Source: a virus
Taxonomy: Duplodnaviria; Caudoviricetes
Reading direction: 5' to 3' (one strand)
Length of the DNA stretch: 64,000 nucleotides
IMG/VR virus record: IMGVR_UViG_3300013121_000032
Span: 1 to 64,000 of that record
Below, piece after piece: positions 4,540 to 50,696 of the stretch (positions are counted from its first letter, which is position 1; the number at the start of each line of letters is the position of its first letter). A program made the position numbers and the translations under genes. The notes beneath the pieces were generated by a model. The model searched no databases and had not been told where the DNA came from. It saw nothing but the letters and a program-made list of their open reading frames with translations.

Positions 4540-4732
4540 TAGTTAGATTAAATCTATTAGGATTACAATCGCTTGTAACTATCATAGATCTACCTTCTTC
4601 ACAGATAATACGGAAACGAGCATTTTTAGCCTTCAATCGAGCAATAGCTGCTTCTTTAGAAAGACCAACTAAATCTTGCCCTTCATTTGATCTAAGCTTA
4701 TTGACGCCCTTTGCAAAAATATCCATTACCAA
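4502..4732 (-). CDS. Peptidase inhibitor I78 / potato-inhibitor-I-like protein
   Basis: LVGLSKEAA...RII...MIVTSDCNPNRFNLTIVGGHVYNVTMG matches the T-x-D...R-x-N...G C-terminal signature. Confidence 0.75.
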   Translation of the reverse strand: MVMDIFAKGVNKLRSNEGQDLVGLSKEAAIARLKAKNARFRIICEEGRSMIVTSDCNPNRFNLTIVGGHVYNVTMG

Positions 4733-5934
4733 TACCTATCCTTCCATGATTTTTCATACCATGTAACTAGATTACCAAGTTCCTTATAAAAGTCAATCTT
4801 AGGTGTCCATTTAAACTCTTCCCTTAATTTTTGTGAAGAGACAAAATATCTAAAATCATGAGCTACCCTATCTCCAATTTTAGAAGAGATAAGGGAGAAA
4901 TCCCCGTCCATAATAGTAAAAATACTATTAACTACATCTAAGTTTTGGATTTCATTATCTGCTGATATATTCCAAATTCCACCAACAGTTTGGGCAGGAT
5001 TTTCTAAAAGTATTAAAAGTGCTCTACAATGATCCTCTACGTGAAGCCAATCTCTAAATTGTAAACCTCCACCATAAAGAGGAAATTGTTTATTTTCTAA
5101 AATTGAAAATATAGTTTTAGGAATAAACTTTTCAGGATGTTGTCTAAATCCAAAATTATTTGTACAGCGGGAAATAATAGTAGGAAGACCATATGTCTTA
5201 CAATAGGACTGAACTAAAAGGTCTGCTGCTGCTTTAGAGGCAGCATATGGAGAGGAAGGATTTAGAGGATTCCCTTCCTTTTTTGGATGCTTATCTATTG
5301 CAGCAGAAGCTCCATAAACCTCATCTGTACTTACTTGTAAAAAAGCATCTACCTTTGTAGCAGCATTTAATAGTGTTAATGTTCCCATAACATTAACAGA
5401 CATAAAATCCTCAGGATCAGAAATTGATCTATCTACATGAGAATGGGCAGCAAAATTAACAACTAAATCAATATGTCCATATCTACTATCTTTTGAGAAA
5501 AGATGATTAACAAGCTCTTTATTTCTAATATCACCCCTTACAAATTGAAAAGCCGGATTGGATGTTGGCATATTTTTAATATTAGAGCCAATTGATAAGT
5601 TATCTAGACCAATAACTCTATACCTTCTTGTGGAAAGGAGAAGATCAACAAAATGGCTACCAATAAATCCAGCAGCACCAGTAACTAAAACAAGTTTAAT
5701 CCTATCTTGTTCCATAGATTCAAAACAAGACTCATGAAAAGGCAAACCATTGCTAAATTTATATTTTTGTACTTTAGAACCCCGATCATTTAGAATAGGC
5801 TCAATTTCTTTAAAACATTGAGCACACCGCATAGTTCTTGGATATGTTAATGGTTCTGGAATAGGCATTTTCGGTAAAAGAGTTATAGGATCTTCTTCCA
5901 TATCCTCATTTCTATATGGATATCGCCTAAACAT
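4726..5934 (-). CDS. rmlB: dTDP-glucose 4,6-dehydratase (RmlB/RfbB family) with N-terminal CxxC...HxxC extension
   Basis: VTGAAGFIGSH, FAAHSHVDRSI, STDEVYG, PYAASK, RCTNNFG, EKFIP, RDWLHVEDHC, HDFRY; start uncertain (5934 or 5901 avoid deep overlap). Confidence 0.92.
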   Translation of the reverse strand: MFRRYPYRNEDMEEDPITLLPKMPIPEPLTYPRTMRCAQCFKEIEPILNDRGSKVQKYKFSNGLPFHESCFESMEQDRIKLVLVTGAAGFIGSHFVDLLLSTRRYRVIGLDNLSIGSNIKNMPTSNPAFQFVRGDIRNKELVNHLFSKDSRYGHIDLVVNFAAHSHVDRSISDPEDFMSVNVMGTLTLLNAATKVDAFLQVSTDEVYGASAAIDKHPKKEGNPLNPSSPYAASKAAADLLVQSYCKTYGLPTIISRCTNNFGFRQHPEKFIPKTIFSILENKQFPLYGGGLQFRDWLHVEDHCRALLILLENPAQTVGGIWNISADNEIQNLDVVNSIFTIMDGDFSLISSKIGDRVAHDFRYFVSSQKLREEFKWTPKIDFYKELGNLVTWYEKSWKDRYW

Positions 5935-6241
5935 AGATATGAGTATCAAACATAGGCTTAAAGCGGAAAGTGTATAAACGCATTCCATTGTACATCGAAT
6001 AGCCCCTATACTCCGCATTAAAAATTCTTTGAATTTTAACACCATTTTTAGATGGAGCATAGGTTAACCTTAATGAGTATTGCTCTCCAACAATATAGTC
6101 ATTCAATTTCTTCTTAAGAAGAAATTGAAGAATTTTATGGTTATTTAAATCTAAACCCGGAGCATAGATATCTGCCATAGCTGGAAAACCAATAATCTCA
6201 AAATTTCCCTCTAAGGTATCAAGTTCAATCTTTTCAATCAT
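5927..6241 (-). CDS. Hypothetical protein
   Basis: 104 aa ORF with GAGG upstream. Confidence 0.6.
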   Translation of the reverse strand: MIEKIELDTLEGNFEIIGFPAMADIYAPGLDLNNHKILQFLLKKKLNDYIVGEQYSLRLTYAPSKNGVKIQRIFNAEYRGYSMYNGMRLYTFRFKPMFDTHIYV

Positions 6242-6276
6242 CTTATAAGGCCTCTGCTGGAACGCATAGCTCTATT

Positions 6277-6304: not shown

Positions 6305-6332
6305 AAATGTTTCTAAATTGTAATTAATTTAA

Positions 6333-16969: not shown

Positions 16970-17631
16970 GATGAAGTTGAGGATAAAGCTGAATCAACTC
17001 TATTTTCTATAGTTAAACTAAATGTTTTATAGATATCTGATCCACTAGTAGCATTAGGAATTTCAAAAGATGGAATTGCTTGAAAATCAGAAATAAGCAT
17101 ATTAGATTCTGTAAGACCATTCAGAAATGCTCCTGTCAAAGTTAATCCGGTACTTTGTAAAGTACTTACAATAGTATCTGTTTGTAAAGAAACCAAGTCT
17201 GTATAAGAGATATCACTATTAGCTTTAGCTATATGGGCTTGTAAAGCTGCTAAATAACGTTTATGGGTAGTAGCAATATCTGATAACCAATCTACTGCTG
17301 TAGAGGTACATAAAGCACTTCTAAAGGTATATCTTCTAATACTCCATTTCCGTTTAATACTATCTAATTGAGAAAGAGTATCTGGACCTAAAGGTCTAGC
17401 ACGAGAACTGGTACAGGTAATTGCTAATTGAATTGGTAAACGTCCAAATGTTTCTACAATAATAGGCATAGCACCATTTGATTCTTTAGCGTTTCTTAGT
17501 TTTTCATTAGAAAATTCAGGACGTTCCCAAGGATCAGTAACATATTGAAAGGTTACATCATCAATATAAAATGTATTAGATGATCCACTAAAAGTTAATG
17601 TAAAGGTACTACCTGGAGGAAGTAAAGGCAT
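16966..17631 (-). CDS. Distal tail protein (Dit-like)
   Basis: Immediately downstream of the tape measure; size and composition. Confidence 0.55.
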   Translation of the reverse strand: MPLLPPGSTFTLTFSGSSNTFYIDDVTFQYVTDPWERPEFSNEKLRNAKESNGAMPIIVETFGRLPIQLAITCTSSRARPLGPDTLSQLDSIKRKWSIRRYTFRSALCTSTAVDWLSDIATTHKRYLAALQAHIAKANSDISYTDLVSLQTDTIVSTLQSTGLTLTGAFLNGLTESNMLISDFQAIPSFEIPNATSGSDIYKTFSLTIENRVDSALSSTSS

Positions 17632-20600
17632 TAATTAGCTCCTGCAAAAACTTGATTCATGGCCATAGCAATAGATTGAGAATCTACTTTAATACCTGTT
17701 TGCATCATAGTCTTAATATCCTTAAGAACATCTGCTGGATTAGTTGATTGTTTTGGAGAATTAATCAAAGAATTTCCAATCTCATTTGCATAAGGAATCT
17801 TAAAATCAGGATTTGTAGGTAATGGAACTCTAAAGTTATATCTAGGAGCTTTGGTTTCTGCTGCTCCAAGAAAGCTTAATGGCAATCCAACACCTGGAAT
17901 TCCGATTCCTTGATTAAAGGAATTTCCTAAATCAGTCTTTTGAGAATCCAATAAAAACTGAACTTGATCAGCATTTCTACCCCTAGCATTTGAGTCTAAG
18001 AGAGCACCAAAGATATCATTAACAGCTTGTCCACCTTTACCTTTTTGAAGGTTAACATCAATCGGTTCTCCAAGAAATGAGTTTAATTGCATGTTTGGAT
18101 CAAGAACATCAATTGGTGGGGGTGGAACGCCTTTCCAAGTAGGTTTACCATCATACATTACAGATGGCTTAGGTTTAGGCTTAAAAAATAAGGAAGACTG
18201 ATCTGGTCTTTCAGGAGGGGGTCCATCATTCTCAGTCCAATTAATCTCTCCATTAGTTAATTCGGTTTTATCTAAAGGTTTTGGCATAAAGAAAAGCGGA
18301 GATTGATCTGGTCTTTCTGTAGGAGGTTTAGGCTTTGGCTTATTTGGTCCATAAGTTTCCAAATCAAAAGGATTAGAGCCATACCTGTCTAAACTATAAA
18401 AATAATCTTCAGCTCTTAGGGATGAGCTATTATATGAAGCTTCAGGAAGAGTAACATTAGGCAAACCAAATTGACTATTAATGTAGTCCTGAGCTTTTTG
18501 ACCAGTTTTAGCTGCTTCAGTACCAGGAAGAGTAAATTTTTGTTTAGCAATTTCAATAAGCTGTCCAAGTTGCTCACTTAACAACTTAAGAGGAAGCTCT
18601 TTTAAAGCTGTATTAGTTTCTTCTAAATTTAATACAAGAGCATTCCTCTGTTCTTGTTCAACTTTAGGAGCATTTTCATTTTGCTGTTCCAGAACACTGA
18701 ATTTTTCTCTTAGAAGATCTTCATCAAATCTTGCCCTAGCCTCTTCATTAAAGTTAGCACTTCCTCTAACTAAGGTATTATCTATAAAACCTGGAAGACC
18801 AGCATTAGGATTAACTTTATATACTTCTTCAGCAGCAGAAATAAGCTCTCCTTGTCTACCTAAGGCTCTTAATTTAGAACTACGATCAAAATCTTGAAGA
18901 GAACGTTTAGCAGCATCAACCTTATCAGCAAAATCTCTAAGCTTAAGAGGAACTAATTTAAGATTATCAGTAAATTCAAGAATAGCTTTTTTAGCATTAA
19001 CTCCAGCTAATGCTATATTATTTTGTTTATCTTGGACTTCAGATAAGTTATCTTGATTAATAGCTGCTTGTTGTTGTCCTTTTCGTTGAGCATTTTTTAA
19101 AGCAGCAAGCTTTTGAATAGCTTCAGGAGAACCAGGAATAGAGGTATTATAAGCTTCTTGAGCTAAATCAATCTGTCTTTGAATGGAGGCACTAGCATCT
19201 ACTCCTGTTTGAAGTCGCTGTTTAGATGCTCCAAGTTGACCAAATAAAGAAATTTGACTAAAGGTTTTAGCTATTTCTTCACCAAGCTTCCTTATATTTT
19301 TCTCTTCATCTTCATAAATCTGAATACCAATTTTCTTTCTAAGAGCAGCATCTTCAGTTAGAAGCTCTTCAACTTGAGACAAAATAGAGTTCCGAAGCTC
19401 TGGAAGCTCTGCAATAAAACTATCAGCAGCTCTTGTTATTCCTTCTACAGATAAATCAATTGGTTTTAGAAGATTATCTAATCTTTGATTTAACTTAGAT
19501 TCTTGAACTACTTCTTCTTGTTTGACAGGAGTAGGAGGTTCTGCTGAAATAGCTTTTCCAATTCCTATACCAGCCTTTCCACCTAGAATTCCTCCTCCAA
19601 CACCTCCAGCAAACCCACCTAATAGGGCACCTGCTTGAGCACCAAGAATTGGTTGACCAAATAAAAGACCGCCTAAACCACCAAGAATTCCACCAATTAA
19701 AGCGCCACCACCAGCACCAGCAATTCCACCACCAACAACCCCTACTCCACCAAGAGCAGATTCAGTCTCAATTGGATGTTTTCTAAGAAGATTAATTAAT
19801 TTAATGACTTCTTTAATAGTATTATCTAAAGCTGTAATAAATCCTGGAAGGGCGTTGGAAACCATTTCCAGAATCTTGTCAGTAATTTCTCCAAAATCTT
19901 TTGCTAATTCTACAATAGAGTCTTGAAGTTTAGGATCTGTTAAAGCGTCAGCAATTGCTTTAAAACCGGGAGCTGCTTGCTCAAGAAAAGTAGTAGCACT
20001 TTGAGTTTCAATATTAGAGGCAAAACCACTAATTCTATTTAATTGTTGTGCTGGAAGAGGGCTATTTCTAAGTGCTTCAGGAAATACATTAAGTCCAGAA
20101 ATACCACTTAGAATATCGTCTATACTTCCAGTAGGTCTAAAGAAGCCAGGAGCTAAACCACCAATAGCTGCTTTAAAAGCTGTATTTCTTCCAATAGTTC
20201 TATCTAGGATATCTCGCCTTAACTGAGTAGGATTTTCTAAAATACCGGGGTTAATAGTAGCAATAGCAGAAAGAACTGGAATAAGGACATTTAAGAATTG
20301 CTCATCAGTAAAATCAGCTCCAGTTTGGCTTAAACTTTCTCCTAAAGCAGAAGCAGCAGTACCAACAGATTGGGAACCAATACCAAGAGGAACCAATCTA
20401 GCTTGTGCAGATTTTAAGAGATTAGCTGATCTTCCTTGAAAAAACCGCTGGGAGTCAATTGGATTTAATTCTTTTCCATTTAAAGTAGCTCTAGAAGTAG
20501 ATTGGAAAACGGCAGCTAAAGAAGTTATTGATCTTTCAAATTCAAGACCAGACTCAGCAGCAGATCTCAATGCTTCAGCTAATTTTTCAAAGTTTTTGAT

Positions 20601-21473
20601 AATACCTTCTGTAACTACAGAACCTATTGTAGAACCAAGAAGAACGTTACCAAATGTAGCACCACCAACTAAGCCACCTGCTAAACCTCCAGCTCCTCCA
20701 AACAATCCACCAAATGCTAATTCATTAATGGCTCTTCTATCCTTAAAGACAGAAAAATCCAAAAGAGAGAAGTCATTTAGTTTAACATCGCCTTGTCTAG
20801 ATGTAGGAATTCCTGCATTTAATGAGGCTTTTCGGATAATATCTTTATCAACATCTGCACCTGAACGTCCCAAAAGCCTTCCAAATACACGATCAAATCT
20901 AGAAGTCCCAGAAAGAGTTTCATTAAGATCTTTAATCCGATCATCAATAATAGAAAACTTATCTGTAGAGGATTCTATAGTTCTAGAGAACTTTCTAAGA
21001 GCTGTGATAGCTCTTACTCCAGCTACAGAAAGTTCAGCACTTTGAGTAGTTAATGTTCCCATTAAACCAGCATCAGGATTAGACTTTTCTCCTAATTTAA
21101 TTCGTTCTAATTCTGCCCTGGTTTGCTCAGCTAAGAGAGCGCGCTGATAAGCATCTTGAGAAGAGGATTGTCTTGAACTAGAAGCTCCTGGATTATTAGT
21201 ATATAAATTACCTAAACCTGTTAGATTAACTTTAATATTTAATCCTGATTTTTCCCATCGTAGAAGAGTATCAAAAACCGGAGAGTTAATAGTTAAACTG
21301 GTTTTAATATTAAGGATATTATTCTGAAGCTTCTCTAATTTTTGTAGAGCTGCATCTGAGGGAAGATTTAATTTAATGATTTTTTCTGAAGAAACAAGAG
21401 CTTCTATCCGCTTAATTAAAGCGGTATCTCCTGTAGCCATAATTTTTAAATTTAATGTTCTACTATCAGCCAC
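17631..21473 (-). CDS. Tape measure protein
   Basis: 1280 aa, helical Ala/Leu-rich, Gly-zipper segments, follows tail chaperones. Confidence 0.85.
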   Translation of the reverse strand: MADSRTLNLKIMATGDTALIKRIEALVSSEKIIKLNLPSDAALQKLEKLQNNILNIKTSLTINSPVFDTLLRWEKSGLNIKVNLTGLGNLYTNNPGASSSRQSSSQDAYQRALLAEQTRAELERIKLGEKSNPDAGLMGTLTTQSAELSVAGVRAITALRKFSRTIESSTDKFSIIDDRIKDLNETLSGTSRFDRVFGRLLGRSGADVDKDIIRKASLNAGIPTSRQGDVKLNDFSLLDFSVFKDRRAINELAFGGLFGGAGGLAGGLVGGATFGNVLLGSTIGSVVTEGIIKNFEKLAEALRSAAESGLEFERSITSLAAVFQSTSRATLNGKELNPIDSQRFFQGRSANLLKSAQARLVPLGIGSQSVGTAASALGESLSQTGADFTDEQFLNVLIPVLSAIATINPGILENPTQLRRDILDRTIGRNTAFKAAIGGLAPGFFRPTGSIDDILSGISGLNVFPEALRNSPLPAQQLNRISGFASNIETQSATTFLEQAAPGFKAIADALTDPKLQDSIVELAKDFGEITDKILEMVSNALPGFITALDNTIKEVIKLINLLRKHPIETESALGGVGVVGGGIAGAGGGALIGGILGGLGGLLFGQPILGAQAGALLGGFAGGVGGGILGGKAGIGIGKAISAEPPTPVKQEEVVQESKLNQRLDNLLKPIDLSVEGITRAADSFIAELPELRNSILSQVEELLTEDAALRKKIGIQIYEDEEKNIRKLGEEIAKTFSQISLFGQLGASKQRLQTGVDASASIQRQIDLAQEAYNTSIPGSPEAIQKLAALKNAQRKGQQQAAINQDNLSEVQDKQNNIALAGVNAKKAILEFTDNLKLVPLKLRDFADKVDAAKRSLQDFDRSSKLRALGRQGELISAAEEVYKVNPNAGLPGFIDNTLVRGSANFNEEARARFDEDLLREKFSVLEQQNENAPKVEQEQRNALVLNLEETNTALKELPLKLLSEQLGQLIEIAKQKFTLPGTEAAKTGQKAQDYINSQFGLPNVTLPEASYNSSSLRAEDYFYSLDRYGSNPFDLETYGPNKPKPKPPTERPDQSPLFFMPKPLDKTELTNGEINWTENDGPPPERPDQSSLFFKPKPKPSVMYDGKPTWKGVPPPPIDVLDPNMQLNSFLGEPIDVNLQKGKGGQAVNDIFGALLDSNARGRNADQVQFLLDSQKTDLGNSFNQGIGIPGVGLPLSFLGAAETKAPRYNFRVPLPTNPDFKIPYANEIGNSLINSPKQSTNPADVLKDIKTMMQTGIKVDSQSIAMAMNQVFAGAN

Positions 21474-30293: not shown

Positions 30294-30609
30294 TTATAAT
30301 GCCATTCCATTTTGCTTTTTCATTACCAGTTAATTCTCTACATGCAATAAGAGAAGAATAGGATTTATAAGCTAGACAATCTTTCCAAACTCTATACATG
30401 AAACCTCGGATATATCTTGTATAAATATTATGATTCTCTTTAATAAAGATTAAAAAATCTTTGGAGTATCCTAAATCCTTAGGAGGAAAATCATTAAAAT
30501 CCCGCGTAGCAATTAAAATATAATTTGGTTCTTCTACTACCAAGTATCCAGGACCGGATACCCAATTATCCTTTAATTTAATGAAAAACTTTATAGGACG
30601 ATCCATCAT
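30265..30609 (-). CDS. Hypothetical protein
   Basis: ORF packed in cluster. Confidence 0.55.
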   Translation of the reverse strand: MMDRPIKFFIKLKDNWVSGPGYLVVEEPNYILIATRDFNDFPPKDLGYSKDFLIFIKENHNIYTRYIRGFMYRVWKDCLAYKSYSSLIACRELTGNEKAKWNGIINEFTELHRT

Positions 30610-31270
30610 ATAATTGCCAATTTATTCCCTGTTGTTTTTCTTTAAAATATTCAGGATCATCTTTCCATAAATCCCATCCTAAGTGATAGAGCTTAGTTGG
30701 TAACTTAGTTATAGTAGCACCATTCTGCATAGCAGTCCAGAGCAAATCTCCATCTGTAAAGCCTGAGGTTAACTTAGTAGATAGATAAAAATCAAAAAAT
30801 GCGGACTTAATTCCCATTAACCAACAGCCAAACCCATCTTCAGAAAACCCGCCATTTGGAGGCACATAGTTAGATGTATCTAAAGAAAATCCGGCAATAG
30901 TGCTTGTTTCCATAGCCTTACTTAATTCAGAAAACCAATCAGTATTTTTTGGTACAACTATATCCAAATCTGTAAAAATAAACCAATCAGATTTCGGAAA
31001 AGTCTGATAAGACCAAATTAATCCATGTCCCTTACAATTAGTAGAGGATTCAATCCAAGTTAAATTAGACTGTTTTCTACCCCATTCCCTTATTTGATCT
31101 GAATGAGGGGATAAGCTATCTACTATATAACATGATATTTTTGGATTAGAATCTAATATACTAGAGATTGATTTTTGTAAATAGTCTAATCGTCTATAAC
31201 TAATTCCGAATAATGGAGTCATAGGTAAAAGACAACTCATTGGTATATGGAACTGTAATACGTCCTGCAA
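30578..31270 (-). CDS. GT-A fold glycosyltransferase-like protein
   Basis: SYRRLDYLQKSISS, IVDSLS, FIFTDLD (DxD), GFTDGD, YHLGW; true start probably MTPLFG. Confidence 0.75.
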   Translation of the reverse strand: MQDVLQFHIPMSCLLPMTPLFGISYRRLDYLQKSISSILDSNPKISCYIVDSLSPHSDQIREWGRKQSNLTWIESSTNCKGHGLIWSYQTFPKSDWFIFTDLDIVVPKNTDWFSELSKAMETSTIAGFSLDTSNYVPPNGGFSEDGFGCWLMGIKSAFFDFYLSTKLTSGFTDGDLLWTAMQNGATITKLPTKLYHLGWDLWKDDPEYFKEKQQGINWQLYDGSSYKVFH

Positions 31271-31533: not shown

Positions 31534-32301
31534 TTATAATCTTCCTAAGAGAGCGTCTTGTCTAATATTAGCCGTATCCATAACTATTAAACTACGATTC
31601 TCAGGATTATTACAAGTAGATTCTAAATTAAATCTATACTTAGATAAGTCTTCATTAATATAACCAAATGTATGCTCTTTAGACATCATTAAAAGAGCCG
31701 GATAGTCTCCTAAAATATACCCACGTTCAGTAAAAAGCTTATAGTTAAAAAACTTTTTATACAGATGAGCACGATACATTGCTGTACAAGTTAGGACAAA
31801 ATTGGTAGTAAGTAATGTATCTCTAACATAGCCAATAGGGGCTGGAAGCTCACCCCATGGAAAATTCTTCCTACCATCAGAGAGAACTTTACCATTTGGA
31901 AGCTCTATTTCAAAATTAGAGTGGACCATTCCATATTTAGTTTTCTCAAGAAAAATAACTTCTTTCTCAGTTTTTGATGGATAAATAACATCATCACTTT
32001 CTAATAGCTGAACATATTTAGCATCTGGATGAATTTTCTCAGTTAAAAACTGGATATTGTTTCTGCCTTTTAATCCTAAATTAGATTGATGATGGAAAAT
32101 CCTGACATATTTAAACTTAAATTGAAGTGGACGACAATAAGCCTCAATAATTTTTTTAGAATCATCTGTAGATCCATCATCACTAATAAGCACTTGCATA
32201 TTATCATAAGTTGAATCTAAGAGGTTATTTAAAAGCTCTTTAAGCCACTTACCATGATTATAAGAAGCTATCAATAGAGAGACTAATGGCTTATCATTCA
32301 T
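31534..32301 (-). CDS. Glycosyltransferase family 2
   Basis: PLVSLLIASYNH, SDDGSTD, NLG, LESDD, GDY, YR. Confidence 0.92.
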   Translation of the reverse strand: MNDKPLVSLLIASYNHGKWLKELLNNLLDSTYDNMQVLISDDGSTDDSKKIIEAYCRPLQFKFKYVRIFHHQSNLGLKGRNNIQFLTEKIHPDAKYVQLLESDDVIYPSKTEKEVIFLEKTKYGMVHSNFEIELPNGKVLSDGRKNFPWGELPAPIGYVRDTLLTTNFVLTCTAMYRAHLYKKFFNYKLFTERGYILGDYPALLMMSKEHTFGYINEDLSKYRFNLESTCNNPENRSLIVMDTANIRQDALLGRL

Positions 32302-33065
32302 TTTAATTTTGCTTCCGATTTATAAGTATAATAATTTGGATATCCACGTTTAATCCAATCAGCTTCAGCTAGATCAGAATATCTAAAATTAGCTGTCCAT
32401 CTAATGACATTAGATCTATTATCTCCTGAACGATGGACAAGGAACTGAGAAAAGATTATAATATCCCCTTCCTTGGCTGGTAGAGGAATGAAATCCTCAT
32501 CTTTGTACTTCTCTACCACTCCAAAAGATTCAACCATTTTGGTGGCTATACAGCCCTCTAAATGACTTTTAGGAACAACTTCTAATGGGCCAACTGCTTT
32601 CTTTGTACAATCCATAAGGGGAAGCCAAACTACAACTCCATTAGTTGATTGCTGAATAGATGCCCAATCTTGATGGGGTGGAGTTTTGTAATTAATCTCT
32701 GATTTTGCTAATTTTTTATGGTGGAAAAATACAACTGGTCTGGTAGATATAGTAGGCCATTGTAATCCTAATTCTTTAAGAACTCTAAATAATTGTTTAT
32801 TTAATCCAAGCTTATGTAAAGAAGGGAGATGTTGGATAGCTTTTCCACACCACATTAAAAGCTGTAGATTATTCATTAGATCAAAAATATCTGTCTCATA
32901 ATAAGGAAATCGGTATGTATTTCCATATAAAAAATAATTTACTTGTGTAAACAGAATTTGTTTAGCTTCTTTACTGAGCTTAGATATCTTCTTTTCTGGA
33001 AAGAATCCAGAAAGAATAAGATATCCATTTTCTTTATAAAATGTTATTTGTTCATTGGTTAACAC
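32298..33065 (-). CDS. PhyH-family 2OG/Fe(II) dioxygenase
   Basis: LTNEQITFYKENGYL, PHQDW, WLPL, GPLEVVPKSH, GDIIIFSQFLVHRSG, R. Confidence 0.9.
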   Translation of the reverse strand: MLTNEQITFYKENGYLILSGFFPEKKISKLSKEAKQILFTQVNYFLYGNTYRFPYYETDIFDLMNNLQLLMWCGKAIQHLPSLHKLGLNKQLFRVLKELGLQWPTISTRPVVFFHHKKLAKSEINYKTPPHQDWASIQQSTNGVVVWLPLMDCTKKAVGPLEVVPKSHLEGCIATKMVESFGVVEKYKDEDFIPLPAKEGDIIIFSQFLVHRSGDNRSNVIRWTANFRYSDLAEADWIKRGYPNYYTYKSEAKLK

Positions 33066-33948
33066 ATTTAGCTACCTGAATACGTGAAGTAAAGTGATTA
33101 TTATAAAGAAGATAGCAATCTCCATTTGACCACCATAAATAGGGATAAGCTTGCATAAAATCATCATCAGAATTTTTAATAATAAAATTCTCATCTTGAC
33201 GAATCCATATACCATCATCTGGATAATATACAGCATATCCTATTCTATAGGCTTCCATTTTTTCTTCTCTATAATATTTTTTTCCTCTATAAGAAAAAAG
33301 CATATGCTTTAATTTTTTTTGATCTGTCCAAACAAATGGTCTAGCTAATCCACCTTCATGATCTTGAGGTTCAAGAATTGAAAAGCCATTAGGCTCAGAC
33401 TGCTTTCCAGAAATAACCCACTGATTGATGGAGTAAAACGGTTCATTATCTTCCCATTTAGTGTAATTCATATAGTATAGAGAATTACTTTCCCTATATG
33501 GCATTGAAATTCCAATTGGATGAAGGGCTGATCTCTCATAGATAGGATTTTTCCTATCTTTAATCCACCCTCTTGATGTAAAAGTTGCACGACCAACAGA
33601 AGTCCTATATCTTACATTAGAGTTCTCAACCTTATTCCATCCAACATAATAAAGATGATGTTCTGGAGTAACTTGACTTATCATTACTCCACTATCATCA
33701 AAATGACCAGGTTCTCCTAAAGTTAAAATTGGATTCTCATTATGTAATGAGACGTTTAATAGTTCACCAGGTTGATTTCGATAAGAAATTTTGTATTCAA
33801 AAGGCAAAGATCTAGATTGACTATCTCGTGCTGAAAACCCAATAACAAGATAACCATTTAAATCAATATAAACACATGGAGCTTGAGATCCTTTAAACTG
33901 CCCATTATCAAAAGCTGGAAGCTCTGCAATTTTTTCAAAAACAAGCAC
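33052..33948 (-). CDS. Five-bladed beta-propeller glycosidase-like protein (glycan-cluster type)
   Basis: PILTLGEPGHFDDSGV, YYVGWN, RP, FSYRG, YRIGYA, MQAYP blade motifs. Confidence 0.75.
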   Translation of the reverse strand: MLVFEKIAELPAFDNGQFKGSQAPCVYIDLNGYLVIGFSARDSQSRSLPFEYKISYRNQPGELLNVSLHNENPILTLGEPGHFDDSGVMISQVTPEHHLYYVGWNKVENSNVRYRTSVGRATFTSRGWIKDRKNPIYERSALHPIGISMPYRESNSLYYMNYTKWEDNEPFYSINQWVISGKQSEPNGFSILEPQDHEGGLARPFVWTDQKKLKHMLFSYRGKKYYREEKMEAYRIGYAVYYPDDGIWIRQDENFIIKNSDDDFMQAYPYLWWSNGDCYLLYNNHFTSRIQVAKCVNQ

Positions 33949-35376: not shown

Positions 35377-36051
35377 TTACCGCATCTCAATATCCAAAGA
35401 ATTTTTATTAATCCTGTTATTTCTTCCTTCTAAATAAACAGAGTTTGGTTCTGTATCTTTAGTAATGATAGCTCCAGAACCTACCAATGTTCCTTCTGCT
35501 AATATCACTTCAGGAGATATTACAGCATTGGCACCAATAAAGCAATTATTTTTAATAATACAACTAGAGCAAATAACTGTTCCTGTTGTAATCCAACAGA
35601 AATCTCCTATAGAAGCATTATGACCTATATGGCTACCAGCCCAAATAATGGTTCCTTGACCAATTTTAGAACCAGTTTGTATTTGACAATTTTCTTGAAT
35701 CCAAGAACCTTCACCAATATCTGTTCCATACCATATCTTGGTAGATGGATGGATTAAGGTTAAAAGCTTACCACCCCACTCTTTCCATCTATTAAATTTA
35801 AGCTCTCTTACTTTATTCATCATCCTATAAGAAATAGGTAGGAAAAGATGGGCTGGAGCTTCACCAACTCTTAAAGAGTCATTAATAAGATTAGCATTAA
35901 ATTTATGTACAATAGTTTTTCGCCATTCCGGCATAGCTATATATTCAGGATCAGCTACAAGAGAAATCTTTTGAAATTCAGCATCTTTCAAATATTCAAA
36001 AGCTACTCTAGCTAATTCTCCTTGTCCAAATAAGAAAATATCAGGTTTCAT
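35377..36051 (-). CDS. Hexapeptide-repeat sugar acyltransferase (NeuD/PglD-like)
   Basis: LFGQGELA N-domain, LIHPS, IGEGSWI, SHIGHNASIG, FIGANA, VGSGAIITKD. Confidence 0.9.
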   Translation of the reverse strand: MKPDIFLFGQGELARVAFEYLKDAEFQKISLVADPEYIAMPEWRKTIVHKFNANLINDSLRVGEAPAHLFLPISYRMMNKVRELKFNRWKEWGGKLLTLIHPSTKIWYGTDIGEGSWIQENCQIQTGSKIGQGTIIWAGSHIGHNASIGDFCWITTGTVICSSCIIKNNCFIGANAVISPEVILAEGTLVGSGAIITKDTEPNSVYLEGRNNRINKNSLDIEMR

Positions 36052-36288: not shown

Positions 36289-37191
36289 TTAAGACCTATA
36301 GAGGGGAAAATACTTAGATTCTTTATTTACATTTTTGCTTAACATATCATAAATTTCCTGATTATGGATATGTTTAATAATTTTATTTGTTTTTATAAAG
36401 CTCCCCCAACCAGATTTAAATCGGGAAAGACCACCATTATTACCAGATGTATGTTCAGCACCTAAAATTAAATACCTATAACCTAAATGCTTAAATACTG
36501 TAATAGCATGATTAATGATAAGATAGCTATTACCATTTTCATATCCTTCTAATGTACTAGCTCCTATATGAAAATAAACATCTTGATTTTGAATATAGAA
36601 AAGACCAAAACCGAGAAAATGTCTACTCATTCCGACCATATATGACCTTAATAAAAAGTTATTAAAGCATAAAGAGCCTGGAACACTGAAAAGCTTTTTA
36701 AATGTTTCTAAATCATAATTTGTAATATAGTCCTCTGGAGTAGAGTGGCGCTTCATTAATTCTTGATAGCATTGCCATTGGAGATTAGAAGGAGGCCCTA
36801 CATTAATTTCTATTTCTCCTTTAGCTTTATTTACATTCCTCTTATGTTGCTCTGAATATTTAGATATGGAGGAATCTTGGAGATCCACAATATAGTGGTC
36901 TTTGTAAGGTTGTCCATATCTAATATACTCAGAAGTTTTTATAGGATCAATTGGAGGGGTAATGATTAAAGAGCTAATAGCTCTATCATCTATCTTAGGT
37001 CTATGTGGAAAAAAGGAAAACGGATATGGGCTAATATAATCAAAATAATCTGTATTTGGAATTTTTCTTTTAATTAGACACGAACCTGTTTGAGGATCAG
37101 ATAGCACCTCACCTAAACGGGTAAAGGTGTCTAAATATTCTTGAGATAGATAACCAGTTCTCACTAATCCATACATCCATGAACAAAGCAA
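36289..37191 (-). CDS. FemAB-like GNAT acyl/aminoacyl transferase
   Basis: SPYPF, HKRNVNKA, YFHIGAS, LILGA, GLSRFKSGWG, YFPLYR. Confidence 0.8.
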   Translation of the reverse strand: MLCSWMYGLVRTGYLSQEYLDTFTRLGEVLSDPQTGSCLIKRKIPNTDYFDYISPYPFSFFPHRPKIDDRAISSLIITPPIDPIKTSEYIRYGQPYKDHYIVDLQDSSISKYSEQHKRNVNKAKGEIEINVGPPSNLQWQCYQELMKRHSTPEDYITNYDLETFKKLFSVPGSLCFNNFLLRSYMVGMSRHFLGFGLFYIQNQDVYFHIGASTLEGYENGNSYLIINHAITVFKHLGYRYLILGAEHTSGNNGGLSRFKSGWGSFIKTNKIIKHIHNQEIYDMLSKNVNKESKYFPLYRS

Positions 37192-38868: not shown

Positions 38869-38928
38869 AAATCAAAGACCGCTGTTAGAGCAGCGGTCCA
38901 AGATTTCAACCCGCAAGAGCGGAATTGA
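38866..38928 (-). terminator. Double hairpin terminator after major capsid gene
   Basis: TCAA.CCGC/GCGG..TTGA, then GACCGCTG/CAGCGGTC followed by TTTGATTTTT. Confidence 0.8.
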
Positions 38929-38944: not shown

Positions 38945-40069
38945 TTATGAAGCCAAGTTAGTGATAGAAACACGGCTGACTTGCAAAGGATCGTCAAGCG
39001 TGAAGATATCAAATACACAAAGCAGTTCATAAAGGGTAGGTTCAGGTCTTGCCAGAACAAACGGGCCAGTCTGACCATCCATTTTGAAACGGGCCATTCT
39101 CGGAATTTCACCACAGAAGATGAGAGCCGAGTTAGCAGGCATTTGTGTATCATATACACACGGAATAACTCCGCCTGGATATGCAACATAGGCTACTTCT
39201 GTTGCTACAGAGTAATTAACCAATTGATTACGGAAGTTCTGACCCAAGGATTGCATCCAAGTTGCAGAATTTTCACCAGGGAAACGGTTAATCATAAGAT
39301 CCCGTACTACTGGCAATTGACCAACTGTAGTCCACAGAAGGAATTGGTGCCCACCATAACCCAATTGCAGAGCAATAGTATTAACTGCATTTTGGATTAA
39401 AGTATTAGTAAGGTTTGAACCACCAGCATTAACACTATTAAGTGTTGAACGGGTAATAAAACCGCCAAGTTGAGGAACGTTACCAACTACTTCCGAAATT
39501 TGTTCGGTATTAGAAAGCAACATATTGCTCATCGTTCTACGGATTCTAACGATTTCATCATCAATCTGATCTTGAAGAACGTTGACATCGCTTTGTTGTT
39601 CAGCTATGCTGGAGAGCATAAACGAAATTTTCAGGGTATCACCAACCGTGGTCAACGTGTTATAACGTTGGTTATAAGCACTTTGAACGTTAGCTGGAAG
39701 AGCGCCATCAATATTGAACTTAGAAGCGGTATCCGTAACGATATCTCTTTCTTTAATTCTGAATTGATAGTCAGTAATAGAAGGAAAATCGCCTTTTGAT
39801 TCCAACCAGTTCAGGAATTTAGTTTCATCATTCCTACGAACTGCTACACGATCAGACAAGCTGACCAAGCGCAGAGCAGAAATATCTACTGTACCCAAGC
39901 TCTTCAGTTGTGGGAGCATAGTGCTCTTAATAACTTCATTAGCTTTTGCATAGCCACCAAACTGTTCGGCAAGAGCTTGCATAACAGGCTTGGAAGCTAG
40001 CTTATGTTGACTGGATTGGCTCTTGTTGGAAAGAACCTCAGTCATTCTTTCGGTAAACATAGGTTCCAT
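38945..40069 (-). CDS. Major capsid protein (HK97 fold)
   Basis: Follows protease/scaffold; 374 aa; visibly more GC-rich codons than its neighbours; strong terminator. Confidence 0.85.
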   Translation of the reverse strand: MEPMFTERMTEVLSNKSQSSQHKLASKPVMQALAEQFGGYAKANEVIKSTMLPQLKSLGTVDISALRLVSLSDRVAVRRNDETKFLNWLESKGDFPSITDYQFRIKERDIVTDTASKFNIDGALPANVQSAYNQRYNTLTTVGDTLKISFMLSSIAEQQSDVNVLQDQIDDEIVRIRRTMSNMLLSNTEQISEVVGNVPQLGGFITRSTLNSVNAGGSNLTNTLIQNAVNTIALQLGYGGHQFLLWTTVGQLPVVRDLMINRFPGENSATWMQSLGQNFRNQLVNYSVATEVAYVAYPGGVIPCVYDTQMPANSALIFCGEIPRMARFKMDGQTGPFVLARPEPTLYELLCVFDIFTLDDPLQVSRVSITNLAS

Positions 40070-40071
40070 TG

Positions 40072-40452
40072 TTATTGATTCTCCTTGTTATACAGAATGG
40101 ACGCTAGATCCGCTGCCAATCCTTTAGGGGCAGCATCAGGGTTAGAGGTAATACTTGAAGCAAGGACACGTCTTGCAATTTCTTCATTAGAAACTTCAGC
40201 AGCTTTAGCCATAGCTTCAGCTTGAGCCTTACCAGTTTCTTTGATCTCTTCAATAGCTTTGGTATTAGCTTCTATAGTAGAATTAATCTTTTCAAGCATT
40301 GAAGTCAATTTAGCAACAACTTCCATCAATTCATCATTAACAGGATTAGTAATGGGTTCAGTAGGCTGTTCTTCTGTTTTGGTTACAGGAGTTTCAGAAA
40401 CTACTTCAGTAGGAGCTTCATTAGCTACTTCTTGATTCACTTGTTCGGTCAC
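40072..40452 (-). CDS. Nested in-frame scaffolding protein
   Basis: GGTAAAATT box (40486-40494), AAGGAG SD and in-frame GTG at 40452. Confidence 0.6.
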   Translation of the reverse strand: MTEQVNQEVANEAPTEVVSETPVTKTEEQPTEPITNPVNDELMEVVAKLTSMLEKINSTIEANTKAIEEIKETGKAQAEAMAKAAEVSNEEIARRVLASSITSNPDAAPKGLAADLASILYNKENQ

Positions 40453-41334
40453 GAGATGATCTCCTTGATTTTGTTTCTCTTCTAAAATTTTACCATTGGC
40501 TATAGTAGATTCATCGTTTTCTAATATAGGCGTAAAAGAATTCCTTCTAATACCTGCTGCTGGTTGCATAGGAACAGCTACTAGTGAGATTTCAAAATAA
40601 TCCTTGACACCTGCAATCTTAGCTGTTACTGTGTTTCCAAGTTCATCTTTCATTCCTGGAGTATGTACACATTTAATTGAATACATAGAATGATTACAGG
40701 AATCACAAACATAATCCATAGGATCAAGAGCAAATCCTACAGATACCTTATTATAGATTCCACCTAAAATACTTTTAATAGTGTGCTGGTTTTCAGGAAG
40801 GTTCAACATATAAACTTTCTGATTAAGAAAATTTCCTTTAGCAGAAGCATCATATATTTTTCCTAATGTAGTTGATGTAGACCAATTATGATCCATTAAA
40901 AATGGTTTATCTATAGACATTTCTGCCATTTGCTTAATAGCTTTAGGAAGGAAATGCTCATAACCGCGATCAACATTTGTATCAGCAGATTTTAGAGAGA
41001 AGACATAAACATCTTCTTTAGACAGATCAATATTAGAAAGCTGATTAATTTTTGCCATATCTTCATCAGAAGGAAGATAATCAGATTCTTTAGAAGGTTT
41101 TTTACCTTTAGTTTGAATTTCCTCAAGAACATTAGGAGTTTCAAAACCAGCTAAAAGGGAATGCATTTTAATCATTCCATCTTTAGTAGGACTAGGAAGA
41201 CCTTTAGTTTTTGCAATTTCTTCAATGCTAATAGTAGACTCAGCTTCTAAAGCATCAATTTCTTCTTGAACTGATTTAAGCATTTCTTCAATTTCTTGCA
41301 ATTCAAAAAGTTTCTTAGCTAATTCTTCTTTCAC
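40072..41334 (-). CDS. Prohead protease fused to scaffolding domain
   Basis: VDRGYEHF, FLMDHNW, VSVGF, CDSC..C.H insert, FEISLVAVPMQPAAGI; acidic coiled C-terminus. Confidence 0.88.
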   Translation of the reverse strand: MKEELAKKLFELQEIEEMLKSVQEEIDALEAESTISIEEIAKTKGLPSPTKDGMIKMHSLLAGFETPNVLEEIQTKGKKPSKESDYLPSDEDMAKINQLSNIDLSKEDVYVFSLKSADTNVDRGYEHFLPKAIKQMAEMSIDKPFLMDHNWSTSTTLGKIYDASAKGNFLNQKVYMLNLPENQHTIKSILGGIYNKVSVGFALDPMDYVCDSCNHSMYSIKCVHTPGMKDELGNTVTAKIAGVKDYFEISLVAVPMQPAAGIRRNSFTPILENDESTIANGKILEEKQNQGDHLVTEQVNQEVANEAPTEVVSETPVTKTEEQPTEPITNPVNDELMEVVAKLTSMLEKINSTIEANTKAIEEIKETGKAQAEAMAKAAEVSNEEIARRVLASSITSNPDAAPKGLAADLASILYNKENQ

Positions 41335-47315: not shown

Positions 47316-47338
47316 TTAAATCCTCCAAGGATGAGGAT

Positions 47339-47823: not shown

Positions 47824-49467
47824 TTAGAGAGCTTTTTTATTTCTCTTATGAAAGTATTCTCCGTCATCTTTTCCACCTACTTTAAGCATTAACGCTTCTA
47901 TCTCTTCCAAAATTTTATCTGATTCAATTTCATTTAAATCTGGATCAGATTGTTCTGGAGCAAGAAGATCTGGAAGTTGAGTTTGACCTTCTCCAGTAGC
48001 CTTAAGAGGAGAATTATCCAAAACAATATTTCCTCTTGGATCATTAGGAGGAAGAGGTTCCCAACCTAGAATTTTTTCTCTAGCCTCATTTACAGTAATA
48101 ATTTTCCCAGTAGTAGCTAGGAAATTAATAGTTTGAGCGGCAGCAAGAGTTAAAGCGCCATATCTACCTGATGGAACAATTTTAATATCTTGAATTCCAA
48201 GTAGATTAACTAGAATTTGTTGGTTAAGAAAGCCATCTATCTTAGAGGTAAGTCGGTTAATAGTTGCATCAAATTGAGCATTAACTACGTTCTCTACAAG
48301 AGAAGGTTGATATTGGGCTGTGGTTGATCTTGGAATTCCTATCTTTTCAGATGGAACACCTAAAAGGGTAGAAACCATTTTAGCTGTATGGTCTTTTCCT
48401 TCAAGGTAATTAGCATCTAATTCTCCAGGTTTCATCATTTGATGAACATCTTTAATATTGTTCATAGCTAATACACCATGACCAGCTTTAGCACCAGCAT
48501 GGAGAAAATCAAATTGAGCTTGAACCTCTTTAACCCAATCAGAGGATCTAGCAGTAGGAATACCATCTGCATCTTTAGGGTTTTCTAAAGAAATTAACCA
48601 ACCAATAAGCCCGCCTTTTTGAAAGATGGTATTATTAAGATTCATGGCATGGAGAATAGTTTCAATTTCAGTAATTGCTGAAACTAGTGGGGGGCTGCCA
48701 ATTTTATTACTTGAGAGGGATGGTAATTTAAGATGAAGAATATCTTTAACATCATAAGTAATCTTCATCCGTCCAACAGTATATTCCCAAGCAATGATTT
48801 CTTCTGTGCTTCTATCAAAAATAGGGAGAAGCTTATTTGGAAGAAGTAGCTCTAATTTAATGATTCCTCTTGTTCTAGTTCTATGAGGAAGAATAAAAGC
48901 ATTACCATAATTCTGAAGATGGGCTATTAATTCTACTCTTAACTCATCTACCTTAAGATTTTTTAATATTTTATATACTTCAGCAAGTCTAGTCTCAGAT
49001 GTTCCTTTAATAGATTTAAGATAGAAGCCATCAGACTCTACTGCTTCTCTAATTAAATCTATTGCTCTACGAATAGCCCAATACTGCTCAGAAATATAAG
49101 CAAAAACTCCAAAAGGATTAGCAAAATAATTCCAAAGCTTAGTTCCAGAAGGACGATATCCAAACATATCAGCAGAGCCTCTAAGGATATAGCTCTTAGA
49201 GGACTCATCAGCCTGTACTACAGGAAGTTGAACATCTTTTTTGGTATTAATTGTTTCCAGAAATTGTTCAAACTCTAAACCCCTTCTGTAAAATTGGGCA
49301 GGATCTTTAACTACTTCAGTTGAGGATAGCTCAGAGAAAAAATCTTTTATAGCTCCCTGATATTCCGGTTTATAGGATTTAATGAAGTATTCTAGATAAG
49401 AACGTTGACCAGTTTTATAAAGTAAGCTATTATAAGTTTTTGAAATTGAGTGAAAAATGTTATCCAT
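47824..49467 (-). CDS. Portal protein (HK97 family)
   Basis: YGNAFI, LELLLP, ILHLK, GSPPL, LLGVPSEKIG, ITVNEAR..LGWEPL. Confidence 0.92.
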   Translation of the reverse strand: MDNIFHSISKTYNSLLYKTGQRSYLEYFIKSYKPEYQGAIKDFFSELSSTEVVKDPAQFYRRGLEFEQFLETINTKKDVQLPVVQADESSKSYILRGSADMFGYRPSGTKLWNYFANPFGVFAYISEQYWAIRRAIDLIREAVESDGFYLKSIKGTSETRLAEVYKILKNLKVDELRVELIAHLQNYGNAFILPHRTRTRGIIKLELLLPNKLLPIFDRSTEEIIAWEYTVGRMKITYDVKDILHLKLPSLSSNKIGSPPLVSAITEIETILHAMNLNNTIFQKGGLIGWLISLENPKDADGIPTARSSDWVKEVQAQFDFLHAGAKAGHGVLAMNNIKDVHQMMKPGELDANYLEGKDHTAKMVSTLLGVPSEKIGIPRSTTAQYQPSLVENVVNAQFDATINRLTSKIDGFLNQQILVNLLGIQDIKIVPSGRYGALTLAAAQTINFLATTGKIITVNEAREKILGWEPLPPNDPRGNIVLDNSPLKATGEGQTQLPDLLAPEQSDPDLNEIESDKILEEIEALMLKVGGKDDGEYFHKRNKKAL

Positions 49468-49502
49468 TGTTAGCCCTAAAATCTCCTTTTAATTTTATCC
49501 AT

Positions 49503-50696
49503 ATGAAGAAACTAGAAGTTGGAATTCCTAATTTGCCTGGTATTGCTAAGTTTAAAGAGCAAATTGATGGAATTTTTAATCGGAGACAATTAACTAACAA
49601 TGGCCCTCTTGTTCAAGAGTTAGAAAAGGTTTGGGAAGATAAGTTTAAAGTTAAACATGCCATTGCTGTTAGTAATGCAACAATGGGATTATATTTGGCA
49701 ATGGAGGCTTTGCTACCTAAAGGTGCAAAAGTTATAGTTCCATCATTTACTTTTATTGCTTCAGCACATGCAATAACTCAAGCATCCTTAAATCCAAAAT
49801 TTATAGACTGTGGTGGACCTTCTATGATGTATCATCCATCTACATTAATACTGGATGATATGTTAAATAAAGAACCTGGCATTAAAGGAGTTTTAATTCC
49901 CAATCTTTTTGGTACAGCTTCTAATTGTGAATTTATAGGTTCTATTGCTAAACGTAGAAATGTTAAATTAATATATGATTCTGCACATGGAGTTGGAACA
50001 TCATTTAGGTCAACTTCTAATAAACCAATTCCATTAGGAGGGTTTGGTGATTGTGAGGTTTTTAGTCTTCATGCTACTAAACTTATAAATGGATTTGAGG
50101 GTGGTATTATTACAACTAATAATTCTGATTTAGCTGTTACTTTAAGAGAAATGAGAAACTTTGGTTTCCAAGAAAATGCTGGAGTTCAGGGATCTTCTGT
50201 AGGATATGGTACTAATGCTAAACTAAGTGAAATCCATGCCTTAATGGCATTATGCAATCTAGAGTATTTAGATGAGATTATTAATCATAATAAAATGATT
50301 TTTGATTTATATGTAAAACATCTGCCTATGCAAATTAATGTAATGGCTCCCATAGCTTATACATATAAATGTAATTATTCGTATGTTCCTTGTGAAGTTG
50401 GTGGATCAGAAAGCTCTATTAGAAATAGATCATTAAGAGATTTCATTCTTAAATATATTTATGAGAAGGCTAATATAAGAGCTAGGATTTATTTTAAACC
50501 TTGCCATTTAAATCCTATTTATAAGGTTTTAGAAAATAAAGTTCCAAATGCTGAGAGATTAGCAGCTACCTCTTTCTGCCTTCCTACAGGTTTAAATATT
50601 GATAAAGATGATGTTATCTATATTTGTGCAAAAATTAGAGAGAGTATAGAACAATTCAATACTCTCTCTAAATCGCAAGGGGCAGCTTGTAATTAG
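49503..50696 (+). CDS. DegT/DnrJ/EryC1/StrS PLP aminotransferase, VioA/DesI-like (NDP-4-amino-4,6-dideoxyglucose)
   Basis: VGIPNLP...LTNNGPLVQELE, VSNAT, PSFTFIAS, YDSAH, FSLHATKLINGFEGG, RNFGF, GTNAKLSEIHA, CLPTG. Confidence 0.92.
   Translation: MKKLEVGIPNLPGIAKFKEQIDGIFNRRQLTNNGPLVQELEKVWEDKFKVKHAIAVSNATMGLYLAMEALLPKGAKVIVPSFTFIASAHAITQASLNPKFIDCGGPSMMYHPSTLILDDMLNKEPGIKGVLIPNLFGTASNCEFIGSIAKRRNVKLIYDSAHGVGTSFRSTSNKPIPLGGFGDCEVFSLHATKLINGFEGGIITTNNSDLAVTLREMRNFGFQENAGVQGSSVGYGTNAKLSEIHALMALCNLEYLDEIINHNKMIFDLYVKHLPMQINVMAPIAYTYKCNYSYVPCEVGGSESSIRNRSLRDFILKYIYEKANIRARIYFKPCHLNPIYKVLENKVPNAERLAATSFCLPTGLNIDKDDVIYICAKIRESIEQFNTLSKSQGAACN

Follow-up and report, generated by a model that had tools for sequence, protein, structure and literature searches.

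The window analysed here, the first 64 kb of the 121,235-bp IMG/VR virus record IMGVR_UViG_3300013121_000032, which CheckV rates as 100% complete and linear, encodes ten glycan-related proteins in and near the virion module of a tailed phage. Judged by co-occurrence, the assignment of these proteins to one predicted pathway leading to a nucleoside diphosphate (NDP)-bound 4-amino-4,6-dideoxyhexose is well supported. The product is probably an N-acylated 4-amino-4,6-dideoxyhexose, and the chemistry that best fits the enzyme set would run from dTDP-glucose via the 4-keto-6-deoxy and 4-amino sugars to N-acyl or N-aminoacyl forms with methylation. With regard to the acceptor, glycosylation of the phage's own virion is the leading, albeit tentative, reading. 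All ten genes had been named in an earlier sequence-only reading of this DNA and they are real, with open reading frames (ORFs) at, or within a few codons of, the positions proposed; each enzyme class was recovered in hidden Markov model or structure searches.

The dTDP-glucose 4,6-dehydratase, an RmlB-type short-chain dehydrogenase/reductase (SDR), is encoded on the minus strand at 4726–5901 and matches TIGR01181 (E = 5e-101; 338 bits vs. an equivalog cut-off of 365) as well as PF16363 (E = 2e-67). In the long ORF (4726–6060) the catalytic domain occupies residues 124–438. As the first 53 codons of this frame overlap ORF 5927–6241 out of frame, the real start is probably the next ATG, at 5901. 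The hydrophobic N-terminus of the longer version is an artefact of that overlap, and a membrane-anchored RmlB is ruled out. An N-terminal extension of about 70 residues (5700–5901) with a CxxC...HxxC arrangement precedes the Rossmann fold and is unusual among RmlB enzymes. The DegT/DesI-like sugar 4-aminotransferase is encoded on the plus strand at 49503–50696 and matches PF01041 (1.3e-65), with the DesI model TIGR04427 as best hit (1.6e-72; 245 bits vs. an equivalog cut-off of 650). Its ORF may start at 49440 or 49503; M22 aligns with the start of related proteins, and 49503 is probably correct. The third enzyme of the series is a hexapeptide N-acyltransferase of the NeuD/PglB/VioB type (35377–36051, minus strand; TIGR03570, 1.6e-39), the closest PDB entries of which are the C-4 N-acetyltransferases PglD and PerB. 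The nearest solved homologues of the DegT protein are likewise C-4 enzymes, namely DesI (2po3, 1.4e-50) and perosamine synthases, which rank ahead of the C-3 enzyme QdtB (4e-24). The chemistry is therefore likely to take place at C-4, and the succession of 4,6-dehydratase, 4-aminotransferase and N-acyltransferase put forward in the sequence-only reading agrees with these nearest homologues. An RmlA-type nucleotidyltransferase (PF00483) is absent from the complete 121-kb genome, while the same search detected the family in all 14 genomes used as a control. The starting donor must therefore be that of the host, and the earlier proposal that the phage makes its sugar rather than borrowing host donors is refuted: host dTDP-glucose or a similar compound starts the pathway.

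Further enzymes would tailor the sugar. Directly beside the acyltransferase gene lies that for a FemAB-like (Acetyltransf_6) GNAT (36289–37191, minus strand), assigned by Atlas language-model features (0.98) and predicted structure (TM 0.87) only; there was no match in Pfam, the PDB or GenBank phages. Some of its relatives are fused PglD_N–Hexapep–Acetyltransf_6 proteins, mirroring the adjacency of 35377 and 36289, and the protein may transfer an aminoacyl or acyl group to the amino sugar. An RmlC-like cupin (29754–30293, minus strand) scores 39 bits with PF00908 (cut-off 27) and matches Sulfolobus RmlC (PDB 2b9u, 4e-6) over residues 14–171, i.e., its whole length, which makes it a candidate NDP-4-keto-6-deoxyhexose epimerase or isomerase. 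The PhyH-type 2-oxoglutarate (2OG)/Fe(II) oxygenase (32298–33065, minus strand; PF05721, 1.4e-20) also matches TIGR04324, the 'sporadic carbohydrate cluster' oxygenase (1e-7). A GH130-like five-bladed beta-propeller (33052–33948, minus strand) is a candidate glycoside phosphorylase, transferase or hydrolase; its class rests on a family-profile search of the PDB, in which it matched beta-1,2-mannobiose phosphorylase (7fip, 3.8e-12; 9fj8, 7.5e-10), and on Atlas features (0.94), the single-sequence AF2 model (pLDDT 32) having been set aside. The class I S-adenosylmethionine-dependent methyltransferase (27030–27608, plus strand) is assigned at fold level only. Its family profile matches PDB 3dli at 4e-8, an LGCG motif is present and the family comprises 7420 representative clusters at E <= 1e-3. 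Single-sequence phmmer searches of the PDB with the proteins at 27030, 33052 and 36289 gave nothing usable.

Two glycosyltransferases (GTs) complete the set. The first is a conventional GT2 enzyme (31534–32301, minus strand; PF00535, 1.6e-18), whose gene overlaps the PhyH frame by 4 bases. The second, on the same strand at 30578–31222 (ORF 30578–31270, likely start 31222; 214 aa), belongs to an unnamed GT-A family that has no Pfam model. Its Pfam GT2 match reaches only 0.007. The AF2 model built from the family alignment has a pLDDT of 94.8, matches GT-A structures at a probability of 1.0 and contains the DxD motif. A profile search of 5.8 billion proteins returned 41 family members, all of them metagenomic, two of which carry a precomputed PF00535 match; the longest contigs measure 60–157 kb. 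No match is encoded in 50,697 GenBank phage records. In IMG/VR, the family is present in unrelated AT-rich phages on contigs of 58–221 kb, next to genes for GT2-like, short DegT-like, TylF/CmcI methyltransferase, ATP-grasp, GT4 and sulfotransferase proteins. The family has thus far been seen on viral-size metagenomic contigs only. Among solved structures the model is closest to ArnC, TarP, GtrB and TarS (TMq 0.5–0.66), and among predicted viral structures to Mimivirus L138 (TMq 0.79, E = 5e-10, 17% identity) and an unnamed 490-aa viral protein (TMq 0.78, 22% identity). A peptide deformylase gene lies within a few kb of the GT-A gene in five of eight independent loci in unrelated phages (28734–29207 in the window; L129, L131, L132 and L141). 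An ATPgrasp_Ter-type enzyme adjoins the GT2/GT-A pair in G002 (L046:3371–4675), a relative described below, and at L129:10705–11967, L132:11298–12569 and L141:149–922. These four loci are without a FemAB-like gene, and the enzyme may provide an alternative amide-forming route on the amino sugar.

Four additional GT genes lie beyond the window in the replication/early arm of the genome, which brings the total to at least six: a GT2 (genome positions 78414–79022), a GT-B-like protein (88718–89902) and two weakly matching GT2-like proteins (95741–96550 and 97773–98561). Two of the four are located directly behind sigma-70-like promoters (TTGACA-N17/18-TAnnnT). A proteasome-subunit-like protein is encoded directly upstream of the GT2-like gene at 95741 (95127–95729; L002:12127–12729), and among the other products of the right arm are a fatty-acid desaturase, a papain-like peptidase and a phosphomevalonate-kinase-like P-loop protein.

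The argument for one shared pathway derives from places where the same families stand together. Metagenome contig L137 unites GT2, GT-A, a 27030-type methyltransferase (30% identical to the 27030 protein), DegT, three methyltransferases and a 4,6-dehydratase-like SDR in a tight same-strand operon. The quartet of GT2, GT-A, methyltransferase and DegT recurs in G002, and the GT2/GT-A pair in L141 and L144; in all four loci it is homologues of the GT2 at 31534 that adjoin the GT-A gene. Among the 80 nearest bacterial DegT homologues (35–40% identity), genes within 6 kb encoded GT2 homologues in 47 cases and hexapeptide acyltransferases in 25; methyltransferases (7 of 80), RmlB and FemAB-like proteins (6 each) and GH130-like proteins (2; adjoining DegT in L160 and L150) were found less often. 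That the scattered genes belong together, as the sequence-only reading supposed, is borne out by their contiguity in L137, by the four clustered in G002 and by the co-clustering near bacterial DegT genes.

The same reading had called the genes dispersed. This holds true for RmlB and DegT, which lie apart as separate insertions outside the island, so that the set occupies three loci and both strands; eight of the ten genes, on the other hand, form one largely overlap-coupled block at 27.0–38.1 kb that runs on the minus strand except for the methyltransferase gene. Co-translation is probable within this island, as its genes overlap by 1–14 bases in long runs, with stop and start codons frequently overlapping. 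A scan of the island for sigma-70-like promoters yielded 55 sites compared with a shuffled mean of 73 and was thus no better than shuffled sequence. The left border is a conserved virion-module gene (26029–26988, minus strand; 42% identical to its counterpart in G001 and 31% to that in G002). The right border is a strong intrinsic terminator (38876–38899, minus strand; 9-bp stem with six GC pairs, followed by a T tract) 3' of a conserved capsid-like gene (38945–40069, minus strand; 43% identical to G001, 41% to G002), which itself lies downstream of the head protease/scaffold gene at 40072–41334. Two island genes have no glycan connection, one for the peptide deformylase already mentioned (28734–29207, minus strand; PF01327, 7e-40) and one for a metallophosphoesterase (29182–29757, minus strand; PF12850 and PF00149, E = 7e-9 to 8e-8). 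The DegT gene stands alone on the opposite strand, inserted between those for portal and terminase.

Two relatives of the same phage lineage, G001 (a fragment of 36.7 kb) and G002 (103 kb long and about 80% complete), were found with an alignment of the protease/scaffold protein; a portal scan of IMG/VR with a single protein retrieved none. Both share 30–50% amino acid identity with the present phage over head, tail, terminase and replication genes. G001 carries a 5.5-kb island of different content at exactly the site of the window island. The region L004:12550–17636 of G001 encodes two GT2s, a C-methyltransferase (Pfam Methyltransf_13/Methyltransf_14) and an SDR; this different deoxysugar set suggests lineage-specific sugars, as in the clades of the Megavirinae. 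G002 has almost nothing at that site and instead an island of about 10 kb between two tail genes. It encodes an M4 peptidase, an ATP-grasp protein, a GT2 (29% identical to 31534), a TylF O-methyltransferase, a GT-A (34%), an HNH nuclease, a methyltransferase of the 27030 type (32%) and a DegT protein (35%), with GT2, GT-A, methyltransferase and DegT all within 4.2 kb. The M4 enzyme at the start of this island (L046:1216–2169) is a metallopeptidase of the thermolysin type. The portal–terminase site that holds DegT in the window is empty in both relatives, and neither has a counterpart of RmlB, the cupin, PhyH, the GH130-like protein, the hexapeptide transferase or the FemAB-like protein. Each of the three lineage members thus has its virion module interrupted by a glycan island; two sites are used, most of the content differs, and the island is an accessory, lineage-variable insertion.

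As to the origin of the genes, no homologue in about 185,000 species genomes exceeds 47% identity for RmlB or 40% for DegT, and the best matches are distributed across many phyla; for DegT this search used an alignment as query, a single-sequence query having retrieved none. The host is not inferable from homologues that are 35–47% identical and spread so widely. The GC content is about 33% throughout the window and neither dips nor jumps across the glycan genes. In a quick tree, the DegT proteins of this phage (G000) and G002 are sisters (SH-aLRT 89). Together with the low identities, this grouping would fit long residence in phages rather than recent capture, while long-branch attraction is a possible cause of the grouping itself. 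The view expressed in the sequence-only reading, that this is not a recently captured O-antigen operon, is in line with the low identities, the phage-like GC content, the restriction of the GT-A family to viral-size contigs and the lack of any phage protein with more than two predicted membrane spans.

Enzyme classes and genomic co-occurrence are established here, and from them we infer the exact sugar, the order of the steps and, above all, the acceptor. In the proposed mechanism, phage RmlB would convert host dTDP-glucose into dTDP-4-keto-6-deoxyglucose, an intermediate that the RmlC-like cupin would possibly epimerise. Amination at C-4 by the DesI-like aminotransferase would follow. The PglD/PerB-like hexapeptide transferase would then N-acylate the amine, and the FemAB-like GNAT encoded next to it would aminoacylate it in addition or instead, with further tailoring by the methyltransferase and the PhyH oxygenase. 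Soluble GTs (the GT2 and GT-A pair, the GH130-like protein and up to four others) would build a short methylated oligosaccharide in the cytoplasm and place it on a soluble acceptor, most likely one or more phage virion proteins as in mycobacteriophages and Mimivirus. A Kyte-Doolittle scan predicted at most two membrane spans in any protein of the genome, which therefore lacks a flippase, polymerase, ligase, oligosaccharyltransferase, GtrA/GtrC and an initiating phosphoglycosyl transferase; the absence of flippase and Wzy noted in the sequence-only reading thus extends to the whole genome. This absence of polytopic membrane proteins would point to a cytoplasmic acceptor. In favour of a virion protein, the position of the islands within the virion module in all three lineage members, the fold link to Mimivirus and the mycobacteriophage precedent are suggestive. 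It is also conceivable, though doubtful at present, that GT-A, GT2, methyltransferase and DegT constitute a conserved viral glycan module with which diverse uncultured tailed phages coat their own particles; such a coat may consist of methylated, N-acylated or N-aminoacylated amino-deoxysugars, with tailoring enzymes swapped between lineages in the manner of bacterial O-antigens, and the module would then be the phage equivalent of the glycan coat of giant viruses.

A number of observations weigh against the pathway as drawn and against a virion acceptor in particular. Every equivalog cut-off is missed by the pathway enzymes, the C-4 regiochemistry and a dTDP rather than UDP or GDP donor are deduced from nearest homologues only, and the sister grouping of the DegT proteins depends on two very long branches. 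Patchy presence among relatives, which the sequence-only reading had named beforehand as speaking against it, is what was found, six of the ten genes being missing from both G001 and G002. The island is accessory and also holds the deformylase and phosphoesterase genes. A search of the capsid-like and tail proteins for a Ser/Thr-rich tail or an evident sequon yielded nothing distinctive. The GT-A module of unrelated AT-rich phages stands among genes for PhoH, ThyX, deformylase and cobalamin adenosyltransferase and not among virion genes; four GTs of the present phage are encoded in the replication/early arm, two of them behind the promoters described above; and the closest solved GT-A structures (ArnC, GtrB, TarP and TarS) are those of enzymes that modify lipid carriers or teichoic acid. 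The earlier statement that the phage transfers its sugar to its particle accordingly goes further than the data, a position among virion genes being weak evidence when the island is accessory and lineage-variable.

Several of these points would suit remodelling of the host envelope, a possible explanation that we nevertheless regard as rather unlikely. Here, the phage sugar and GTs would decorate an intermediate at the cytoplasmic face (teichoic acid, undecaprenyl-linked O-antigen, capsule or S-layer precursor), host machinery would export the product, and the altered surface would block superinfection or keep progeny off debris. TarP-like action on a host polymer at the cytoplasmic face is a serious rival to virion glycosylation: the solved structures closest to the GT-A are those of ArnC, GtrB, TarS and TarP, the last a teichoic-acid transferase from a prophage, homologues of the pathway enzymes in bacteria belong to clusters of the polysaccharide type, the module occupies islands of the auxiliary metabolic gene type in unrelated phages, and sigma-70-like promoters in front of two right-arm GTs would suit early expression. 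However, the phage contributes no flippase, GtrA/GtrC-like or other polytopic membrane protein, the 214-aa GT-A is without the membrane helices of ArnC and GtrB, and its best viral structural match is a GT from the Mimivirus fibril cluster. In addition, seroconversion is typical of temperate phages. The present phage looks virulent because a tyrosine integrase was not found in the genome and because it carries its own DNA polymerase, ribonucleotide reductase and sigma factor, so that little time would remain for a new envelope polymer.

Another soluble acceptor appears distinctly unlikely, be it a non-structural phage or host protein, a small molecule or a peptide, for example one produced by the genome's many amidoligase cassettes or by the ATP-grasp enzymes found beside the GT pair in other phages. 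An ATPgrasp_Ter enzyme does adjoin the GT pair in G002, L129, L132 and L141, the genome has COOH-NH2 ligase and amidoligase genes, and related modules contain methyltransferases of the TylF, FkbM and CmcI types, which are characteristic of secondary-metabolite sugars. Yet the island holds no aglycone-forming enzyme, i.e., no polyketide synthase, nonribosomal peptide synthetase or core of a ribosomally synthesized and post-translationally modified peptide, and six or more GTs suggest an oligosaccharide bound to a macromolecule rather than a decorated metabolite. It is improbable that the genes are mere metabolic passengers unconnected with one another and lacking a common product, the pathway being a coincidence of common sugar-enzyme families. 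Absence of six of the ten genes from the relatives, the distribution over three loci and both strands, and the unrelated genes in the island would agree with such a notion, whereas the contiguity of the same families in L137, in G002 and around bacterial DegT homologues and the chemically consecutive series of dehydratase, 4-aminotransferase and N-acyltransferase contradict it.

Hypermodification of DNA, in which the GTs would glycosylate a modified base, is the least credible explanation: phage GT-A and GT-B enzymes do glycosylate 5hmC, 5hmU and 5hoC (bioRxiv 10.1101/2023.12.21.572611; PMC13326640), and a dCTP-deaminase-like protein and a 2OG oxygenase are encoded in the genome, but the latter is of the PhyH and not the TET type and the complete 121-kb genome is devoid of a thymidylate-synthase homologue (PF00303), a C5-cytosine methylase (PF00145) and a TET/JBP oxygenase (PF12851), one of which is needed in all described routes of phage DNA glycosylation (PMC13326640; bioRxiv 10.1101/2023.12.21.572611). 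The sequence-only reading had listed it as an alternative, and an alternative it stays, disfavoured because the genome encodes no enzyme that would provide the hydroxyl acceptor.

The genomic setting is that of a tailed phage without a close relative in GenBank at the DNA level (megablast with 25 kb of sequence). PHROG matches identify a minus-strand left arm with genes for tape measure (17631–21473, minus strand), head protease/scaffold (40072–41334, minus strand; head and protease matches), portal (47824–49467, minus strand) and large terminase (51252–54197, minus strand); the replication arm follows on the plus strand from about 55 kb, beginning with helicase and DNA polymerase. The head protein has only remote phage matches (25–34% identity). 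In the protease/scaffold protein, C210, C213, C222 and H224 are invariant across 12 relatives and could be a zinc site in the prohead protease domain, while the C-terminal half is scaffold-like and poorly conserved. The large terminase is 981 aa long, i.e., about twice the usual length. Relatives align with it segment by segment and its PHROG matches break at about residues 337 and 420, for which reasons it may contain an insertion, an intein for instance. Domains of the intein and LAGLIDADG types occur elsewhere in the genome.

That viruses can glycosylate their virions with enzymes of their own is established for giant viruses and a few mycobacteriophages, where it shields from antibodies and shapes recognition. 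Should the virion of the present phage prove to be the acceptor of a rare amino-deoxysugar that the phage itself makes, self-made glycan coats would be more widespread and chemically more elaborate among bacterial viruses than now known; a transferase family common to unrelated uncultured phages and related in fold to the Mimivirus enzymes would point the same way. The stability, adsorption and immune evasion of phages used in therapy would be affected by this. With the host envelope as target, the GT2/GT-A/methyltransferase/aminotransferase module would still be a conserved, well-defined unit that lends itself to testing. The presence of a FemAB-like enzyme next to a PglD-like acyltransferase furthermore suggests an unexplored route of sugar aminoacylation.

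Among known systems, the fibril cluster of Mimivirus makes 2-O-methyl-Vio4NAc with the methyltransferase R132, the aminotransferase L136, the 4,6-dehydratase R141 and L142, an N-acetyltransferase and GT, and contains the GT2s L137, L138, R139 and L140, L138 being one of several mutually similar GT2s (PMC10117803). Both viruses have a 4,6-dehydratase, a pyridoxal phosphate-dependent aminotransferase (probably acting at C-4 in the phage), an N-acyltransferase, a methyltransferase and several GT-A/GT2 enzymes, and the sugars are lineage-specific in Mimivirus as, apparently, in the phage. Mimivirus differs as a eukaryotic giant virus that employs UDP-sugars and multidomain GTs of 250–880 aa, whereas the phage adds FemAB-like, PhyH, RmlC-like and GH130-like enzymes and has its genes distributed over three or more loci. 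The Mimivirus acceptors are known to be fibril proteins, while virion proteins would be the likeliest acceptors in the phage. In Pseudomonas syringae pv. tabaci, a 'viosamine island' (vioA, vioB, vioM, vioT, vioS, vioR and acp) serves flagellin O-glycosylation (PMC3927599). The counterparts of the phage enzymes in this island are an aminotransferase that forms dTDP-viosamine, a hexapeptide acyltransferase, a methyltransferase and a transferase dedicated to the sugar, and its product is an O-methylated sugar with a non-acetyl acyl residue on the amino group, attached to a surface-exposed filament protein. On the other hand, the system is bacterial, it draws RmlB from the chromosome, its VioT (1173 aa) is unrelated in size to the phage GTs, and acyl synthesis proceeds via an acyl carrier protein, 3-ketoacyl-ACP synthase III and a reductase, all of which the phage island lacks.

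Virion glycosylation in mycobacteriophages was reportedly described by Freeman et al. in Cell Host Microbe in 2023. These tailed phages use GTs of their own to attach glycans to capsid and tail-tube subunits (cited in PMC12619734). They reportedly use GTs only, and the acceptor sites reported are C-terminal extensions, which the capsid-like protein studied here lacks. We found no report of a phage-encoded amino-deoxysugar pathway. The phage-encoded enzymes TarP, acting on the wall teichoic acid of Staphylococcus aureus (PDB 6h1j), and GtrB, involved in seroconversion (PDB 5ekp), have the GT-A fold in common with the protein at 30578 (TMq 0.53–0.60). Unlike the latter, they stem from temperate phages and come without genes for sugar-nucleotide biosynthesis; moreover, GtrB is membrane-anchored and works together with GtrA and GtrC, and TarP has a trimerisation domain. 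Compared with its precedents, i.e., Mimivirus, the mycobacteriophages and the viosamine island of P. syringae, the system described here contributes as new elements the GT-A family, the conserved partners of this family and the FemAB-like enzyme.

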